In this document: positions 8,903 through 52,222 of the stretch, one piece after another
Layout of the letters: each line of letters starts with the position of its first letter
Position numbering within the stretch: position 1 is the first letter of the stretch
Source: Escherichia coli
Lineage (GTDB): Bacteria; Pseudomonadota; Gammaproteobacteria; Enterobacterales; Enterobacteriaceae
Direction: 5' to 3' (one strand)
Assembly: GCF_016026235.1 (NCBI RefSeq)
Contig: NZ_CP065613.1
Length of the DNA stretch: 64,000 nt
Made by a program: the position numbers and the translations under genes
Notes under the pieces: generated by a model
What the model saw: the letters and a program-made list of their open reading frames with translations, nothing else
Database searches by the model: none
Told to the model about the DNA's origin: nothing

Positions 8903-9447
8903 TAATTCTGATTCCTCAACTTATTCGCCAGCCTTCAAAGGGGCAATATTGCCGGAGATACTACATTATCTGCCGCGTCGAGTCACAGGAGATCAGCGTG
9001 AATAGCGCCGCCGGACGTGCTCCGACGGCGATAAAGGCATCAATGTGCCTTGATATACAACTCTTTGCTGTAGACTTGATCGGCATAGAGGGCAGCACAA
9101 GGTTGCGCCCATGCCACACCACTCGGCATGGGGGTCCGCTCCGGGCGATTCGAGAAGTTGAGGTTATGCGAGTCCAGGGAAGCCTAAAGCATCAAAGTAG
9201 TCGACTGTAAGTATACGGTTCAGCCCAGTTTAGCTGTGTCTCCACCAGTGCCCCGCGCCTCCTGCCATAAGTGCGGCTTGCTCATGGATACCCCCGAGAC
9301 GGCTTACGGCGCACCGGATAATAAATTTCGCGTATACATGGTATTCCTTACCGGAGAAATTATAAGCCCAACAACAATACGCCTGTGGCATTGTTCGCTC
9401 AAACTTATCGCGAGTGATTTGGCTCACACTCCGGTAAAGATTCCCCA

Positions 9448-12916: not shown

Positions 12917-13627
12917 TTACTCATTAATCAATTTTTTGATATGTTCTCTAATCTCTAACAACCTCATACCATAAGAGATGAATTTATAATCATCTGTATC
13001 ACGCGCAGGCAAATTATTAATTAAATAAATAAAAAACCCCAAATCTCGTTCAACACCACGATTATATCTAATACCAGCCATAATATACTGCTCATTCGTC
13101 ATATACAGTGTTGCCGAAGAGGGATAATCAAAAAGGGCAAGATCTCTTAAATGAGTAGCAGCAATTTGAAACGTAAAATCATCTTCCATTAGGCATGTCG
13201 CTAACTCTAACTGATTTCTGGTAGTTAATTCTGAAGGGTCAAGACCTAGAGTAATCGCTGCGGTTCGTATTTGTATACCCATTGAGCCAAATGATGTTTT
13301 ATTTTCAGGCATATCTAACAATCCAATCATTCTTTTTGTTTCATATATCTGAAACTTATAATTTTCAGGCATACCTCCTGACTCAATCCAGGCCACACCG
13401 CCCAGTAACTCTGGACGAATCCCAGCGGCATATGCATGTTTAATTATTTTGTCCCTATTATATTGTACATATGCATCTTTATAAGCATTTAAATAATATA
13501 CTCCCGAACGGCGACGCGAATCATTTTTTCCTAACTTCCAGAGTAAAACGTCCATTTCATCCCATTTACGGAACTTAGTTTGTGGAATTGTACAATAGCT
13601 ATTTTTTATAGTGAGATCGCTTTTCAT
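12917..13627 (-). CDS. putative Hcp-associated effector with lytic-transglycosylase/lysozyme-like (GH23-like) motifs
   Basis: ORF track gives 12917..13654 with a TTG first codon overlapping hcp; ATG at 13627 (MKSDLTIKN...) sits 2 nt after the hcp stop. Motifs AWIESGG, GSMGIQI and AGIRYNRG resemble the ES / G-x-Q / YN-G signature of SLT-type muramidases (e.g. MltE QQESGGNPNA...GLMQL). A+T-rich; no signal peptide. Confidence 0.55.
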   Translation of the reverse strand: MKSDLTIKNSYCTIPQTKFRKWDEMDVLLWKLGKNDSRRRSGVYYLNAYKDAYVQYNRDKIIKHAYAAGIRPELLGGVAWIESGGMPENYKFQIYETKRMIGLLDMPENKTSFGSMGIQIRTAAITLGLDPSELTTRNQLELATCLMEDDFTFQIAATHLRDLALFDYPSSATLYMTNEQYIMAGIRYNRGVERDLGFFIYLINNLPARDTDDYKFISYGMRLLEIREHIKKLINE

Positions 13628-13629
13628 AT

Positions 13630-14109
13630 TTAAAAAACCCTTTCTTCCCAACAACTATATGATTCCGTACTCGCGATATGGTGCTTCCATGTTATATTTT
13701 TATAATTAAGAACAATAACCTCTTCCGGTTGATTACCCGCATGTGTAATTGAGTGTGGATAACAAGTCAGAATATTCGATAAATGTGCCCCTTGCAATTC
13801 AATTGTGTAAAACCTTTCAATACAACCGCCAGAATTAATTCTATAAAAATTAAATATAGCTGATAACTCTTCATTTTCAGAAAGAGCAGCATTTAATAAA
13901 GGGGAGGATTTATCTATTGGCTTGTAAAATTTTATGGGGTGATGCACTACATTATATTCTCGACTTAAAGAATGGTCGAACTGCAAAACAAAAATTTCAT
14001 CCACATGATTTATTTGATATTTATTACCAATAGATGCATACGAACCACAGCCCTCAGAGATCAAACCTTGTGTTTTCCCTTTAATTGATAAGTATATGAT
14101 ATTTGACAT
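13630..14109 (-). CDS. hcp: type VI secretion system tube protein Hcp (TssD family), orphan copy
   Basis: 159-aa ORF; IYLSIKGKTQGLISEG, IDKSSPLL and YKNITWKH match conserved Hcp blocks; GGAG Shine-Dalgarno 9 nt upstream; A+T-rich. Confidence 0.8.
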   Translation of the reverse strand: MSNIIYLSIKGKTQGLISEGCGSYASIGNKYQINHVDEIFVLQFDHSLSREYNVVHHPIKFYKPIDKSSPLLNAALSENEELSAIFNFYRINSGGCIERFYTIELQGAHLSNILTCYPHSITHAGNQPEEVIVLNYKNITWKHHIASTESYSCWEERVF

Positions 14110-26295: not shown

Positions 26296-26403
26296 GGTAA
26301 AAAAACCTCACTAAAATTATGGTTACCAGAATCAGGGCAGTCTTAGGAGTGGCGGCATATAGCCAAAATAACGTGAGCGGGTCCATGCCCGACAGAATCG
26401 TTA

Positions 26404-26542
26404 CTCTCTCCCATCCGGACTCTAACCGTCGGCCCCGGAATTACACCGGATCTGCTGTCCTTTGAGTTCGCACCCAAAGCGCTCGCGGGCTTTCAACTGA
26501 GTTGATTTACCGCCGGTGGGGAATTTCGCCCCGCCCTGAGAA
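26404..26542 (-). promoter_or_regulatory. FMN riboswitch (RFN element) in the ribB leader
   Basis: minus strand reads ...GGGCGGGGCGAAATTCCCCACCGGCGGTAAA...CCGGGGCCGACGGTTAGAGTCCGGATGGGAGAG, the conserved RFN core. Confidence 0.85.
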
Positions 26543-26668
26543 TAAGCGGATTCACTATAACGCTAATGATTAGCGGCAGCAACGCATAGCTTCACATAAT
26601 TCTGGTTTATGACTTACCCTTATCGCACTACAATGGCACTCAACACCTATCAGTACAGGGAAACTACA

Positions 26669-26968
26669 ATGATTGACCCGAAAAAAATTGAGCAAATCGC
26701 TCGCCAGGTTCACGAATCAATGCCTAAAGGAATCAGGGAGTTCGGGGAAGATGTGGAGAAAAAAATCCGCCAAACCCTACAAGCGCAGCTGACGCGTCTC
26801 GATCTGGTGAGCCGCGAAGAATTCGACGTACAGACGCAAGTCCTGTTACAGACTCGTGAAAAACTGGCGTTACTGGAGCAGCGCATCAGTGAACTGGAGG
26901 CGCGCAATAATTCGGTAGCAGATCTTCAATCTCCTCCGGCTATCCCGCCTATTGATAAAGCAGAATAA
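26669..26968 (+). CDS. ubiK: ubiquinone biosynthesis accessory factor UbiK (YqiC)
   Basis: ORF 26609..26968; likely start at MIDPKKIEQ with AGGGA Shine-Dalgarno; coiled-coil. Confidence 0.85.
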
Positions 26969-26980
26969 AGCAACACAAAA

Positions 26981-28127: not shown

Positions 28128-29789
28128 ATGGATGATATTGTTAATTCTGTGCCCTCCTGGATGTTTACCGCGATTATTGCCGTATGCATTCTGTTTATTA
28201 TTGGAATTATTTTCGCCAGGCTCTATCGTCGCGCTTCAGCAGAGCAAGCATTTGTCCGTACCGGCTTAGGGGGGCAAAAAGTGGTAATGAGCGGTGGCGC
28301 AATCGTGATGCCGATCTTTCATGAAATAATCCCCATCAATATGAATACTCTGAAGCTGGAAGTCAGCCGCTCAACCATTGATAGCCTGATTACGAAAGAT
28401 CGTATGCGCGTCGATGTAGTAGTCGCTTTCTTTGTGCGGGTAAAACCTTCAGTAGAAGGGATTGCCACCGCTGCCCAGACGCTGGGGCAACGCACCCTGT
28501 CGCCTGAAGACTTACGTATGTTGGTTGAAGATAAATTTGTCGATGCCCTCCGTGCAACAGCTGCGCAAATGACCATGCATGAGTTACAGGATACCCGCGA
28601 GAACTTCGTGCAGGGAGTACAAAATACCGTAGCTGAAGATCTGTCGAAAAACGGCCTGGAACTGGAAAGCGTTTCACTTACCAACTTTAACCAGACCTCG
28701 AAAGAACATTTCAATCCGAACAATGCCTTTGACGCCGAAGGTTTAACCAAACTGACTCAGGAGACGGAGCGCCGTCGCCGCGAGCGTAACGAAGTTGAAC
28801 AGGATGTAGAAGTTGCGGTGCGTGAGAAAAACCGTGATGCACTTTCGCGCAAGTTGGAGATTGAACAACAAGAAGCGTTTATGACGCTTGAGCAGGAGCA
28901 GCAAGTTAAAACCCGTACCGCTGAACAAAATGCGAAAATTGCTGCTTTTGAAGCTGAACGTCGTCGTGAAGCAGAGCAGACGCGAATTCTGGCTGAACGA
29001 CAGATTCAGGAAACAGAAATCGACCGCGAACAGGCCGTCCGCTCAAGAAAAGTTGAAGCTGAACGTGAAGTTCGCATTAAAGAGATCGAACAGCAGCAGG
29101 TCACCGAAATCGCTAACCAGACGAAATCGATCGCTATTGCCGCCAAATCGGAACAACAGTCCCAGGCAGAAGCGCGTGCTAACCTTGCACTCGCAGAAGC
29201 AGTAAGCGCCCAACAAAACGTAGAAACCACTCGCCAGACAGCCGAAGCCGATCGTGCCAAGCAGGTGGCGCTGATTGCCGCAGCACAGGATGCAGAAACC
29301 AAAGCGGTTGAACTGACCGTGCGGGCGAAAGCAGAAAAAGAAGCCGCAGAGATGCAGGCGGCGGCGATCGTTGAGTTAGCCGAAGCTACGCGTAAAAAAG
29401 GCCTGGCGGAAGCAGAAGCACAACGTGCGCTGAACGATGCTATCAACGTACTTTCTGACGAACAAACCAGCCTTAAATTCAAACTGGCCTTGTTGCAGGC
29501 GCTACCTGCGGTAATAGAGAAATCCGTGGAACCAATGAAGTCCATTGACGGTATCAAGATTATTCAGGTCGATGGTCTGAATCGTGGTGGTACTGCGGGG
29601 GATGCAAACACGGGTAATGTGGGGGGCGGAAACCTGGCGGAACAAGCATTATCAGCCGCACTCTCTTACCGCACACAGGCACCACTGATTGACTCCTTGC
29701 TCAATGAAATTGGCGTTTCAGGCGGCTCACTGGCTGCATTGACTTCACCCTTAACCTCAACAACTCCCGTCGCCGAAAACGTAGAATAA
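28128..29789 (+). CDS. yqiK: flotillin-like SPFH/band-7 protein YqiK
   Basis: 553-aa ORF, N-terminal TM then SPFH domain and long E/A/Q-rich coiled-coil. Confidence 0.9.
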   Translation: MDDIVNSVPSWMFTAIIAVCILFIIGIIFARLYRRASAEQAFVRTGLGGQKVVMSGGAIVMPIFHEIIPINMNTLKLEVSRSTIDSLITKDRMRVDVVVAFFVRVKPSVEGIATAAQTLGQRTLSPEDLRMLVEDKFVDALRATAAQMTMHELQDTRENFVQGVQNTVAEDLSKNGLELESVSLTNFNQTSKEHFNPNNAFDAEGLTKLTQETERRRRERNEVEQDVEVAVREKNRDALSRKLEIEQQEAFMTLEQEQQVKTRTAEQNAKIAAFEAERRREAEQTRILAERQIQETEIDREQAVRSRKVEAEREVRIKEIEQQQVTEIANQTKSIAIAAKSEQQSQAEARANLALAEAVSAQQNVETTRQTAEADRAKQVALIAAAQDAETKAVELTVRAKAEKEAAEMQAAAIVELAEATRKKGLAEAEAQRALNDAINVLSDEQTSLKFKLALLQALPAVIEKSVEPMKSIDGIKIIQVDGLNRGGTAGDANTGNVGGGNLAEQALSAALSYRTQAPLIDSLLNEIGVSGGSLAALTSPLTSTTPVAENVE

Positions 29790-30026
29790 ATTTTCAGCTA
29801 TGAACATCCCTGGCCCAAAAAGCCGAGGATTTTTTATATCTGCGTTCCGATAAAAAGTGCAAATGATCGGGCTGTTGCAGCATTTTGCGTGACCGCTCGG
29901 GGAAGGCAAAACTACCTCAGGGAAAGCGTTGCGCGGGGTCCGGCGCTCATCAACAATCGGGGAGTCAGCAAGGGGCTGAAACGGGAAAGCCCCTCCCGAA
30001 GAAGGGGCCTTGTATAAGGAAAGGGT

Positions 30027-30086
30027 TATGATGAAGCTCGTCATCATACTGATTGTGTTGTTACTCGTAAGTTTCGCAGCTTATTA
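30027..30086 (+). CDS. ibsD: type I toxin IbsD (19-aa hydrophobic peptide)
   Basis: ATGATGAAGCTCGTCATCATACTGATTGTGTTGTTACTCGTAAGTTTCGCAGCTTATTAA = MMKLVIILIVLLLVSFAAY; too short for the ORF track. Confidence 0.8.
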
Positions 30087-30104
30087 ACAGCCAATCAGAG
30101 GGGG

Positions 30105-30113
30105 GAGAAATCC
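30105..30113. repeat. target-site duplication, left copy (agaaatcct)
   Basis: identical 9-mer recurs at 31409-31417 flanking the IS. Confidence 0.7.
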
Positions 30114-31408
30114 TCTGAGGGATCCCCAGAAAATTTAGTAAACCATTATCATATTGGTATACCGTTGCTGTAGAACTTTCAGCCCTGCGTCAAATGACAG
30201 TGTGTTTAGTATGAGTGGAGAATGTCGAATCACATTCTCCGCCAGTTTTAATAACGAGATGACTCGCCTGTGCTTCACTGTATTTGCCTGATATTTATGA
30301 TGTATCCCTTTGTTTTCCAGGCTGAAACCGCTTAACCACATAATGATACTGGCTAATGTTGCGATCAGACTCAATACCGTGACCCGCCCGGATGAATGAC
30401 TGGCACCAAACCGTAGTCCAAATCCCCAGCGAGGATTTTTTTCATCCCTGAAATTTTGCTCAATTTGCATTCTACGGCTGTATAATTTCATTACCTGTTT
30501 TGGCGAGAACTCAGTACTGTTTGTGAAAATAAACCATGGTGATTTCCCGGCAGTACGAGCTTTAGCCGTCACCGATGGTCTGGTTGCTCTTTCCTTCGAG
30601 CGTTTAAATCTACGACCTTTAGGCTTACTTTTATAAAGATAAAAATGCCCTTCATGTTGTGCATTTTTATCTCGACCCAGCAGGCCTTCACCTAAATAAA
30701 TTGCTGTCGTTGATGCTTTTGTGCCTGAGTCCGACACCTTTTCCCAGCCATTACCAACATTGTAATAATGATTGCCCAGTACCCGGCAAATATAGGTCCA
30801 GCCACGGGAGCGGAGCTGTTGGAACCATCGCCCCTGAAAACCGGCATCTGTAATAACAATGACATCAGTCCCGGGGGAAAAGCACTCAGCAAGCGATTCC
30901 AGAAAACGCTCATGTACATCTGCATTCGCTGTCTGTGATGATGGAACGACACAACTCATCAACGGTAAAGAACGCCCGTCACATGCCAGGCTTGCCCGCA
31001 AAAGCTGAAAACGAGAGGCATGATAAGCACTCCAGTCAATGAGTATCACAACACGAGACATTCCCGCGTAATCTTTTGGGTAATTCGCTGAAAAATGGTG
31101 GAAACCTCATTTTGCAAATGTCGATTCCCCAACAGTCGATCCACCCGCTTTATTTTGTTTTTAACTGATGCCGTACCGGTTAAATGACGCCCGATACTGG
31201 TAAGTGTGAGGGAAGCGCCATTTATTACAGCATTAGTTGCGTCAATCAGTGATTTTTGACGGTAAAGATGCAAAGGGGCCAGTATATTGTTAAGGAAATT
31301 TTGGCATAATGAACGTGCAGGCATAGTGGTGATCTCCTTGAAATTGTTAGCACAATCAATTAGATCACATCTCACTATGCCTGTCTTGTTTTCTGGGGAT
31401 TCCTCAGG
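30114..31408 (-). mobile_element. IS10-like insertion sequence (IS4 family), about 1.3 kb
   Basis: terminal inverted repeats CTGAGGGATCCCCAGAAAA / CTGAGGAATCCCCAGAAAA (IS10 ends are CTGA..GATCCCC); 9-bp direct repeats; transposase homologous to IS10 Tnp. Confidence 0.85.
30135..31375 (-). pseudogene. IS10-like DDE transposase split into two ORFs by a frameshift
   Basis: ORF 31375..31046 (LTLTSIGRHLTGTASVKNKIKRVDRLLGNRHL, like IS10 Tnp N-terminus) and ORF 31061..30135 (ILIDWS...VITDAGF...RMQIEQNFRDEK) are in different frames; IS10 Tnp is one 402-aa ORF. Confidence 0.65.
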
Positions 31409-31417
31409 AGAAATCCT
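31409..31417. repeat. target-site duplication, right copy (agaaatcct)
   Basis: matches 30105-30113. Confidence 0.7.
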
Positions 31418-31429
31418 CCCTTACCCTTG

Positions 31430-31465
31430 TTCCTTTACTTTAGGTTGAAAAAAAATCAGCGTCAA
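31430..31465 (-). promoter_or_regulatory. sibD promoter-like element, now separated from the sibD body by the IS
   Basis: minus strand TTGACG - 17 nt - TAAAGT; the equivalent TTGACG - 17 nt - TAGAGT sits upstream of sibE at 31814-31841. Confidence 0.5.
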
Positions 31466-31659
31466 GAAGGTTTCATTAACACATATCCCTAGCCCAAAAA
31501 GCCGGGGATTTTTTATATCTGCGTTCCGCTAAAAGGTGCAAATGCTCAGGACGTTGCAGCGTTTTGCGTGACCGCTCGGGGAAGGCAAAACTGCTTCAGG
31601 GAAAGCGTTGCGCGGGGTCCGGCGCTCATCAACAATCGGGGAGTCAGCAAGGGGCTGAA

Positions 31660-31806
31660 ACGGGAAAGCCCCTCCCGAGGAAGGGGCCTTATAGAAGGAA
31701 AGGGTTATGATGAAGCTCGTCATCATACTGGTTGTGTTGTTACTGTTAAGTTTCCCGACTTACTAACAACTGATCAGAGGGGGGAGAAATCCTCCCTTAC
31801 CCTTGT
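31660..31806 (-). ncRNA. sibE: SibE antitoxin sRNA (antisense to ibsE), apparently intact
   Basis: promoter-like TTGACG/TAGAGT at 31814-31841 on the minus strand; overlaps ibsE; ends approximate. Confidence 0.55.
31707..31766 (+). CDS. ibsE: type I toxin IbsE (19-aa hydrophobic peptide)
   Basis: MMKLVIILVVLLLLSFPTY followed by TAA. Confidence 0.8.
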   Translation: MMKLVIILVVLLLLSFPTY

Positions 31807-31885
31807 TCCTTTACTCTAGGTTGAAAAAACAACAGCGTCAATAGGCCTGCCATGTACGAAGCGAGATCTGTGAACCGCTTTCCGG

Positions 31886-33319
31886 TTAGCCTTTTTTATC
31901 CTGTTGGATCTTCTTGATAATGTTAGTGGTCGAGCAACCGTCTTCAAAGTTGAGCACCAACACTTCGCCGCCGTTGGCCCAGACTTCTTTACTCCCGGCG
32001 ATCTCTTCCGGTTTGTAGTCACCGCCTTTCACCAGCAGGTCTGGCAGGATCCCGGCGATCAGACGCTGCGGCGTGTCTTCTTCAAACGACACTACCCAGT
32101 CGACCGCTTCCAGTGCGCCCAGCACAATCATACGCTGTTCGAGTGGGTTTACCGGGCGGGAATCCCCTTTCAGCCGTTTGGTGGAGGCATCGCTGTTGAC
32201 GGCAACAATCAAGCGGTCACCCAGCTTGCGGGCATTTGCCAGATAAGAGACGTGCCCGGCATGTAGGATATCGAAGACACCGTTGGTCATTACCACTTTT
32301 TCACCACGTTTACGCGCTGCCGCTACAGCCAGCTTCAGTTCCTCTTCGGTCATCACGCCAAAGCCGGTATCTGCGCGTCCACGTACAGCGTTTTCCAGCT
32401 CGATCGGCGAAACCGTGGAGGTTCCCAGTTTGCCGACCACCACGCCAGCCGCCGCATTGGCAAAGAAGCAGGCTTCTTCCAGCGAATTACCCGCTGCCAG
32501 CGTTGCCGCCAGGACGCCAATCACCGTGTCGCCCGCACCGGTAACGTCATACACTTCCTGCGCTTGGGTTGGCATATGCAGCGGCGCTTTACCCGGTTGC
32601 AGCAGCGACATACCCTGTTCGGAACGGGTCACTAACAGAGCCGAGAGTTCGTAATCGGCAATCAGTTTCATGCCGCGCTCAACAATCTCTTCTTCGGACT
32701 TACATTTACCGACAACAGCTTCAAATTCCGAGAGATTCGGCGTTAACAGCGTAGCGCCGCGGTAGCGCTCAAAATCGGTACCTTTTGGATCAATCAGCAC
32801 CGGAACACCCGCTTTACGCGCCAGTTGGATCATCTGCTGTACGCTTGCCAGCGCACCTTTGGCGTAGTCAGAAAGCACCAGCGCGCCAATCGAACTCAGC
32901 GCCTGATTAATCCGCTCGTGCAACGGCTGCGGATCAACACCTTCGAAACCTTCTTCAAAATCCAGACGGATCAGCTGTTGGTTGCGGGAAAGTACCCGTA
33001 ATTTGGTAATGGTCGGATGCGTCGGTACAGAAACGAAGTCGCATTTGACGTTGACGTCGGCCAGAGATTTACTCAGCGCGCGCGCTGCATCGTCAATGCC
33101 CGTCAACCCGACCAGACGTGCATTAGCACCGAGAGAAGCGATATTCATCGCCACGTTAGCCGCGCCGCCCGGGCGTTCTTCGATGGTATTCACTTTAACC
33201 ACGGGCACCGGCGCTTCCGGCGAGATACGGCTGGTGGGACCGTACCAGTAACGATCCAGCATCACATCACCAACCACCATCACTCCTGCTCGTTCAAACT
33301 CTGGCAGCGTTACTTTCAT
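31886..33319 (-). CDS. hldE: bifunctional D-beta-D-heptose 7-phosphate kinase / heptose 1-phosphate adenylyltransferase
   Basis: 477-aa ORF, ribokinase-like N-domain and cytidylyltransferase C-domain. Confidence 0.95.
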
Positions 33320-39695: not shown

Positions 39696-39721
39696 GTATA
39701 AAACTAAACGTTAACACGAAC

Positions 39722-39835
39722 CATCCCCTCGCCCCTTCGGGGAGAGGGTTAGGGTGAGGGGAACAGACCAGCACCGGTGCGAACAATCACCCCCACCCCG
39801 GCCCTCTCCCTACAGAGCGAGGGAGAAAACCAGGC
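39722..39835. repeat. GC-rich imperfect inverted-repeat element (boxC-like) between cca and uppP
   Basis: cccctcgccccttcggggagagggttagggtgagggg ... cacccccaccccggccctctccc. Confidence 0.5.
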
Positions 39836-39857
39836 CTGCTCCCGAACCTTTTCTCAA

Positions 39858-52146: not shown

Positions 52147-52222
52147 GGCCCCTTAGCTCAGTGGTTAGAGCAGGCGACTCATAATCGCTTGGTCGCTGGT
52201 TCAAGTCCAGCAGGGGCCACCA
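52147..52222 (+). tRNA. ileX: tRNA-Ile2 (anticodon CAT, lysidine-modified)
   Basis: ggccccttagctcagtggttagagcaggcgactCATaatcgcttggtcgctggttcaagtccagcaggggccacca cloverleaf with CCA end. Confidence 0.9.

Follow-up and report, generated by a model that had tools for sequence, protein, structure and literature searches.

The Ibs/Sib family of type I toxin-antitoxin modules of Escherichia coli comprises five constitutively expressed Sib RNAs of ~140 nucleotides (nt), each antisense to, and repressing, a hydrophobic Ibs toxin of 18-19 residues (PMC2943612). Overexpression of Ibs is toxic at the level of the family, through an effect on the membrane or on ATP synthase (PMC2943612; bioRxiv 10.1101/2025.05.26.656083). 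Tandem duplication of the modules has been noted, and ibs genes have often been overlooked by programs that call open reading frames (ORFs) (PMC2887945). Here we describe a stretch of 64,000 nt from the E. coli contig NZ_CP065613.1 (hereafter, the window, that is, the whole stretch at its full length) in which the yqiK-hldE intergenic interval, judged by homology, is occupied by the tandem modules ibsD/sibD and ibsE/sibE. This locus is already known in E. coli, and its identification adds nothing new. In the window, the antitoxin gene sibD is split by a copy of the insertion sequence (IS) ISEc60, and a known tandem Ibs/Sib locus with an ISEc60-split sibD is the best overall explanation of the data, one that we hold with high confidence. 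The split of sibD and the repeated insertion of ISEc60 into the Sib hairpin amount to a minor new observation of modest weight, which adds slightly, and in a form that can be checked, to the knowledge of how IS choose their targets and how type I toxin loci decay or are rewired.

The identity of the two modules follows from several lines of evidence that agree with each other. The order of the genes is the same as in E. coli K-12 MG1655 (yqiK, sibD/ibsD, sibE/ibsE, hldE; DNA identity of ~96-98%), and the whole window is collinear with K-12 positions 3.164-3.227 Mb, with ~96-99% DNA identity depending on the segment. The two peptides of 19 residues each are 100% identical to K-12 IbsD (b4664) and IbsE (b4666), and both cover positions 1-19 of the 19 positions in the Pfam profile Ibs_toxin (PF13956), with scores of 40.0 bits for ibsD and 46.7 bits for ibsE (gathering threshold 27). 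An Rfam scan yields two minus-strand matches to SIB_RNA (RF00113; gathering score 56), one over each ORF, and both regions align with the annotated ibsD/ibsE and sibD/sibE genes of K-12. Thus, the assignment to the Ibs family and the tandem ibsD/sibD and ibsE/sibE arrangement, which an earlier note had proposed, along with these two checks, partly from the letters of the sequence, are borne out by peptides, protein and RNA families, and gene order alike. The two ORFs might alternatively be regarded as chance ORFs in repeated intergenic DNA, given that they consist of only 19 codons, lie within a repeat and have no match to an Ibs model in a search of the NCBIfam library with both peptides; this explanation, to which we assign a negligible probability, is refuted by the identity to the K-12 toxins, the Pfam scores above the threshold and the presence of SIB_RNA on the opposite strand. 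By analogy with the family, each plus-strand ORF would encode a hydrophobic membrane toxin, and the minus strand would give rise to a constitutive Sib RNA of ~144 nt that covers the entire ibs message and pairs with it via two target recognition domains (TRDs), located within the ORF (TRD1) and at the start of translation (TRD2), thereby repressing it.

The earlier note had located ibsE exactly at 31707-31766, where the frame translates to MMKLVIILVVLLLLSFPTY followed by a stop codon. Its ibsD is likewise a real ORF, with coordinates that were one base off: the frame at 30027-30086 reads YDEARHH..., and it is 30028-30087 that encodes MMKLVIILIVLLLVSFAAY and a stop codon. The near-identical repeat units that it pointed out correspond to 29785-30084 and 31464-31763, 300 nt with 90% identity. 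The distance between the units, start to start, is 1679 bp here compared to about 375 bp in K-12, because ISEc60 interrupts sibD at 30116-31406; apart from the insertion, the locus also departs from that of K-12 in the 5' untranslated region (UTR) and the TRD2 region, by one 1-nt indel and a few substitutions. Both ORFs are indeed below the threshold of the ORF listing (minimum 20 amino acids), in which ibsD appears only as a TTG-extended ORF of 25 amino acids and ibsE is not listed. The further statement that such genes would be missed by most automated callers is correct historically (PMC2887945) and does not apply to the current NCBI pipeline: current RefSeq genomes label ibs genes as 'type I toxin-antitoxin system Ibs family toxin', and in the same loci, the sib RNA genes are unannotated. 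In several other E. coli genomes, the yqiK-hldE interval is only ~570 bp long and carries a single ibs gene, and therefore the number of Ibs/Sib units at this position varies among strains.

The two antisense genes differ in their integrity (Table 1). The SIB_RNA match of sibE (31692-31841, minus strand) scores 140.9 bits and covers all 147 model positions. The match of the sibD remnant (30013-30152, minus strand) scores 81.7 bits, with the 5' third misaligned, compared to 147.7 bits for the intact K-12 sibD; the match is degraded because ISEc60 interrupts the gene, and two other IS-split sib genes likewise score low in Rfam (71.9 and 73.3 bits). A contiguous gene of ~140 nt with an adjacent promoter is present in the case of sibE and absent in the case of sibD, the two parts of which (31407-31465 and 29984-30115) are separated by the 1291-bp IS. 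The claim of the earlier note that each toxin ORF has its antisense Sib RNA accordingly stands for sibE and fails for sibD as a complete gene; the ISEc60 insertion was absent from that note. Thus, sibE is the only intact antitoxin gene in this locus, and the E module should function as it does in K-12. A plain transfer of the 'sibD' annotation to this locus would be wrong since one of the antitoxin genes is broken.

Table 1. Features of the yqiK-hldE interval and its flanks (window coordinates).
Feature	Coordinates	Strand	Description	Evidence
yqiK	28128-29789		Flanking ORF	ORF listing
Left part of repeat unit D	29790..30027	+	Includes ibsD promoter and 5' UTR	Repeat comparison
sibD distal fragment	29984..30115	-	SibD nt +13 to 3' end; antisense to ibsD ribosome-binding site and ORF	K-12 sibD alignment, Rfam
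ibsD	30028..30087	+	19 codons and stop, MMKLVIILIVLLLVSFAAY	Translation, K-12 b4664 identity, Pfam
Target-site duplication, left copy	30104..30115		GGAGAAATCCTC, 12 bp; SibD nt +13 to +24	
ISEc60	30116..31406	-	IS4 family, 1291 bp	Inverted repeats, target-site duplication, transposase profiles, near-identical RefSeq copies
Target-site duplication, right copy	31407..31418		GGAGAAATCCTC, 12 bp	K-12 alignment
sibD proximal fragment	31407..31465	-	Promoter and SibD nt +1 to +24	Repeat with sibE promoter, promoter scan, K-12 homology
sibE	31663..31806	-	Intact antisense RNA gene, 144 nt	K-12 sibE homology, Rfam, predicted fold
ibsE	31707..31766	+	19 codons and stop, MMKLVIILVVLLLLSFPTY	Translation, K-12 b4666 identity, Pfam
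sibE promoter	31813..31841	-	-35 TTGACG, 17-nt spacer, -10 TAGAGT	Promoter scan; under 5' end of Rfam model
hldE	31886-33319	minus	Flanking ORF	ORF listing

The boundaries of the insertion are sharply defined. Removal of 30116-31406 restores the collinearity with K-12 in the alignment; the element is bounded by terminal inverted repeats of 18 bp (TGAGGGATCCCCAGAAAA / TTTTCTGGGGATTCCTCA; 17/18 positions agree) and flanked by two copies of GGAGAAATCCTC, which is present in a single copy at the K-12 position. When positions are counted as in the annotated K-12 SibD, the 12-bp duplication coincides with the small 5' hairpin of Sib, GGGAGGAUUUCUCCCC. The matches between copies overran the element boundaries by 11-17 bp, and we accordingly considered the possibility that GGAGAAATCCTC was part of the IS ends; this was rejected because, at eight sites, the flanking 11-13 bp differ and each is duplicated. 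The transposase gene, which runs from 31324 to 30135 on the minus strand, matches Pfam DDE_Tnp_1 (74.8 bits). Because of a 1-bp deletion after 31062, its frame of 396 amino acids is broken into ORFs of 109 and 308 amino acids, the latter of which matches NCBIfam transpos_IS4_2 with 295.6 bits (cut-off 152). Thus, the copy in the window lacks an intact transposase frame and, in this sense, is not an autonomous element. Near-identical copies are named 'IS4-like element ISEc60 family transposase' in RefSeq, and against the 1292-bp copies in four loci (L001, L002, L004 and L005) of enteroinvasive E. coli (EIEC), two bases are substituted and one is deleted in the window copy. The 18-bp end TGAGGGATCCCCAGAAAA is common to many different elements among GTDB representative genomes (loci L036-L063), in Photorhabdus, Kosakonia, Dryocola, Candidatus Erwinia dacicola and others; the GGGG...CCCC flank accompanies only some of these (for example, that of Kosakonia oryziphila), and others abut ...GGGC or ...GCGC.

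Both pieces of sibD retain recognizable signals. The proximal fragment is linked to the sibE promoter region by a 59-nt repeat with 95% identity and carries a predicted promoter with a -35 box TTGACG (31465-31460), a 17-nt spacer and a -10 box TAAAGT (31442-31437), the transcription start at 31430 being assigned by homology to the K-12 sibD annotation. This promoter now faces into ISEc60 and is co-directional with the transposase gene. The distal fragment retains the TRD1 and TRD2 regions (with the TRD positions taken from PMC2943612) and the terminator hairpin, and is devoid of its own promoter and of the 5' strand of the P1 stem; in its predicted minimum free energy fold, the TRD1 stem-loop, the P6 hairpin and the terminator are kept. 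On the opposite strand, the ibsD transcription start is placed provisionally near 29964 from the ibsD +1 primers of PMC2943612.

The similarity between the two Sib RNAs raises the question of whether SibE could replace SibD in trans, such that the insertion would have no consequence. In the window, SibD and SibE are 91% identical and share an identical run of 36 nt across the start codon region. Nevertheless, we consider the substitution highly improbable because the differences cluster in the TRD regions: the 13 mismatches are concentrated at +35 to +62 (TRD1) and +113/+116 (TRD2), in agreement with the TRD positions of PMC2943612, that is, in the regions that enforce cognate-only recognition, and non-cognate Sib RNAs fail to repress, with the exception of ibsA (PMC2943612).

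The location of the insertion fits a target preference of ISEc60 that emerges from comparison of its copies. Each of eight copies from E. coli records is flanked by its own duplication of 11-13 bp, which follows the pattern GGGG(A/T-rich)CCCC, and 25 further junctions were obtained when metagenome contigs were scanned with the IS end. The 27 unique left flanks outside sib genes from these two sources yield the motif GGGG-N4-CCCC, with G at frequencies of 0.81-0.95 in positions -12 to -9 and C at 0.78-0.95 in positions -4 to -1. When the window, with the IS removed, was scored with a weight matrix derived from these flanks, the sibD and sibE sites ranked joint 6th-7th of 125,370 positions, with the observed orientation scoring 10.8 vs 9.0 for the reverse. 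Five Kosakonia oryziphila copies found in the scan of GTDB representatives show the same kind of flank. For IS186, a target of the form GGGG(N6/N7)CCCC has been described (PMC5009759), and a literature search on ISEc60 found nothing about target preference. By this measure, the sibD insertion fits, as a predicted target, the preference of ISEc60 for palindromic GGGG-N4-CCCC sites.

ISEc60 is rare, with matches in 19 of the 5,426 complete E. coli genomes. Among these genomes, the sibE hairpin is occupied by ISEc60 in CFSAN029787, RMDEC364 and VL46, which are EIEC of sequence type (ST) 99, and the sibB hairpin is occupied in these three and in RMDEC332, that is, in four ST99 genomes. CFSAN029787 is an O96:H19 ST99 enteroinvasive strain with pINV (PMC10470518); six chromosomal copies of ISEc60 are present in it, two of these in sib genes. 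In FDAARGOS_943, ISEc60 lies at the same site of sibB, with the duplication GGGGGAAACCCC, in the opposite orientation and with IS66 nested inside. The neighbouring ibs ORF is intact in all these sibB and sibE insertions (RMDEC332, L002:1554-2920; CFSAN029787, L001:1801-3180; FDAARGOS_943, L065:1365-5446). No ISEc60 junction was found in sibA or sibC, where the search gave cross-matches to those in sibE and sibB and nothing else, and the sibD junction was found neither in complete E. coli genomes nor in the GTDB representative genomes scanned with the IS end. We found nothing in the literature searched that describes a GGGG-N4-CCCC rule for ISEc60 or IS insertions in sib genes.

In principle, recombination between the tandem units could have transferred a single insertion and so account for both the sibD and the sibE cases. 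Several facts make this unlikely: the insertion is embedded in D-type flanks here vs E-type flanks in ST99, the IS copies differ, and one unequal crossover cannot convert the sibD-insertion arrangement into the sibE-insertion arrangement or the reverse. The same Sib hairpin has been hit independently at least four times, twice in sibB and once each in sibD and sibE. About six loci per 63 kb of the window score at least as high as the sib site with the weight matrix; the five sib sites would thus make up ~1% of comparable genomic targets, so that their observed share of insertions looks enriched, a rough estimate that ignores purifying selection in genes and is only suggestive. Selection for insertions co-oriented with sib, in which read-through would preserve the antitoxin, at first fitted 3/3 cases and was rejected as a rule given that the sibB insertion in FDAARGOS_943 is in the opposite orientation, and the matrix favours the observed orientation in any case. 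As a separate observation, an ISEc60 copy that is itself broken by IS600 and IS1 is located at a GGGGAAAATCCCC site ~25 bp 3' of the hokB stop codon in FDAARGOS_943 (cybB-hokB-trg, L007:618-3974), hokB being a second kind of type I toxin locus struck by this element.

Our preferred reading of the D module, which is tentative and falls somewhat short of an even chance, is that antisense RNA reaching the distal sibD fragment continues to repress ibsD. Such RNA could originate by read-through from the sibD promoter across the co-directional transposase gene, or from the transposase promoter itself, or it could start at a weak candidate promoter (30174-30145) that points outward. On the minus strand of ISEc60, there are only two terminator-like sites, with 5-bp stems, and terminator-like sites overall occur at the chance level. 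Studies of SibC show that nt 1-29 are dispensable, that SibC(46-141) still represses and that TRD1 (+46-68) alone is sufficient (Han et al., PMC2943612). Furthermore, Sib deficiency, except for that of SibA, has been reported to be lethal when the cognate ibs is expressed (PMC2943612, discussion). Several considerations make this reading uncertain. The outward promoter candidate fits only 9/12 consensus positions. Because the frameshift in the transposase leaves most of the RNA untranslated, the 1.3-kb read-through transcript would be exposed to Rho, which could stop it. The nt 1-8 that form the P1 stem, which TRD2 of SibC (+99-115) requires (PMC2943612), are now 1.3 kb away from the distal fragment. 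At the sibB locus of FDAARGOS_943, read-through is implausible, with ISEc60 in the opposite orientation and IS66 nested in it, and ibsB is intact; therefore, loss of a Sib promoter can be tolerated. Finally, a Salmonella sibA promoter mutant is viable; devoid of SibA, it shows more ibsA mRNA, less ATP and more spread from macrophage to macrophage (bioRxiv 10.1101/2025.05.26.656083).

The last two observations, which imply that a severed or promoterless Sib is compatible with viability, can also be read as support for the possibility that the D module is an orphan toxin gene. Under this scenario, which we regard as the main alternative and as somewhat less probable than the preferred reading, SibD would be effectively lost, and ibsD, at a low native level or partly derepressed, would be tolerated or perhaps even beneficial. 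The sibD promoter is indeed separated from the antisense region by 1303 bp, and the ibsD ORF and its putative promoter are unchanged. The reported non-viability of Sib-deficient cells (SibA excepted) that express the cognate ibs argues in the opposite direction, and antisense RNA still has a route, given that the sibD promoter is co-directional and ISEc60 contains no clear terminator; moreover, both precedents concern ibsA or ibsB, not ibsD.

The insertion might affect the toxin message as well. ISEc60 lies within the hairpin, ~10-20 nt short of the 3' end presumed for the ibsD mRNA of ~163 nt (estimated from the primers in PMC2943612), so that the message would now run into the IS, where the next plus-strand terminator-like hairpin is at 30215-30242. 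The mRNA extended in this way is predicted to fold differently from the native form. Conceivably, then, the D module is dead on both sides: lacking its normal 3' end and terminator hairpin, the ibsD mRNA would be unproductive and the state of sibD irrelevant. We consider this unlikely given that the ibsD ORF, ribosome-binding site and promoter region are intact, that the 3' ends of ibs mRNAs are estimated rather than mapped, and that a longer 3' UTR does not by itself block translation. Repression by antisense RNA that reaches the distal sibD fragment remains the reading that we tentatively prefer, and the strain offers a natural setting in which to ask if an Ibs toxin gene persists once its cognate Sib RNA is no longer linked to a promoter.

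A broader, speculative interpretation, which we deem quite improbable, is that ISEc60, travelling with pINV-type plasmids of EIEC, uses the Sib 5' hairpin as a hot spot and that the resulting knock-outs of antitoxin promoters derepress Ibs and are pathoadaptive rather than neutral. If so, derepressed Ibs would lower ATP and favour intracellular spread, as in the engineered Salmonella sibA promoter mutant.

Elsewhere, the window shows several differences from K-12. At 9075-9446, the K-12 segment of ~2.6 kb with ygiS and the type II toxin-antitoxin genes mqsR/mqsA has no counterpart, ~370 bp of other sequence being present instead; at 26898-26972, between ubiK and glgS, the K-12 fimbrial operon ygiL-yqiGHI (~6.6 kb including IS2 in K-12) is absent. 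A two-gene islet between ygiZ and mdaB (12917-14109), absent from K-12, encodes an orphan Hcp (type VI secretion tube/effector) and a hypothetical protein of 245 amino acids; it occurs in ~1260 of the 5426 E. coli genomes and shows 100% identity with its counterpart in O121:H19 strains. The short cca-bacA intergenic stretch at 39699-39850 has no K-12 alignment. Two RNA features are ordinary: a flavin mononucleotide (FMN) riboswitch upstream of ribB (26399-26547, minus strand, 120.9 bits) and a tRNA at the K-12 ileX position (52147-52219, plus strand).

The locus resembles several described systems. It shares with the K-12 pair ibsD/sibD and ibsE/sibE (b4664/b4447 and b4666/b4611) the same peptides, the position between yqiK and hldE, the tandem layout, the sib promoters and the TRD regions; the difference is that sibD is intact in K-12 and, in the window, is interrupted after nt 24 by the 1291-bp ISEc60 with a 12-bp duplication. 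Pedersen and Gerdes (1999) reportedly found that, in K-12, IS150 and IS186 lie immediately 3' of hok genes. In hok/sok loci with IS, as in the case described here, the IS is found a few tens of bases 3' of a small type I toxin ORF, in an RNA regulatory region; however, hok/sok represents a different toxin family, and in the present locus it is the antitoxin RNA gene itself that is cut by the IS. IS186 and ISEc60 are alike in that both belong to the IS4 family, insert into short G4...C4 palindromes and have recurrent hot spots. They differ in the core and in the extent of the duplication: ISEc60 has a 4-nt core and duplicates the whole palindrome of ~12 bp, whereas IS186 duplicates only the 6-7 nt core, with the G4 and C4 tracts flanking it (PMC5009759). 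Finally, in the Salmonella sibA promoter mutant, as in the window, Sib is uncoupled from its promoter and ibs is intact (bioRxiv 10.1101/2025.05.26.656083); in that case, however, the change consists of point substitutions in the -10 and -35 boxes of another paralogue in another species, whereas in the window it is a natural IS insertion that leaves the promoter predicted to be active but facing into the IS.

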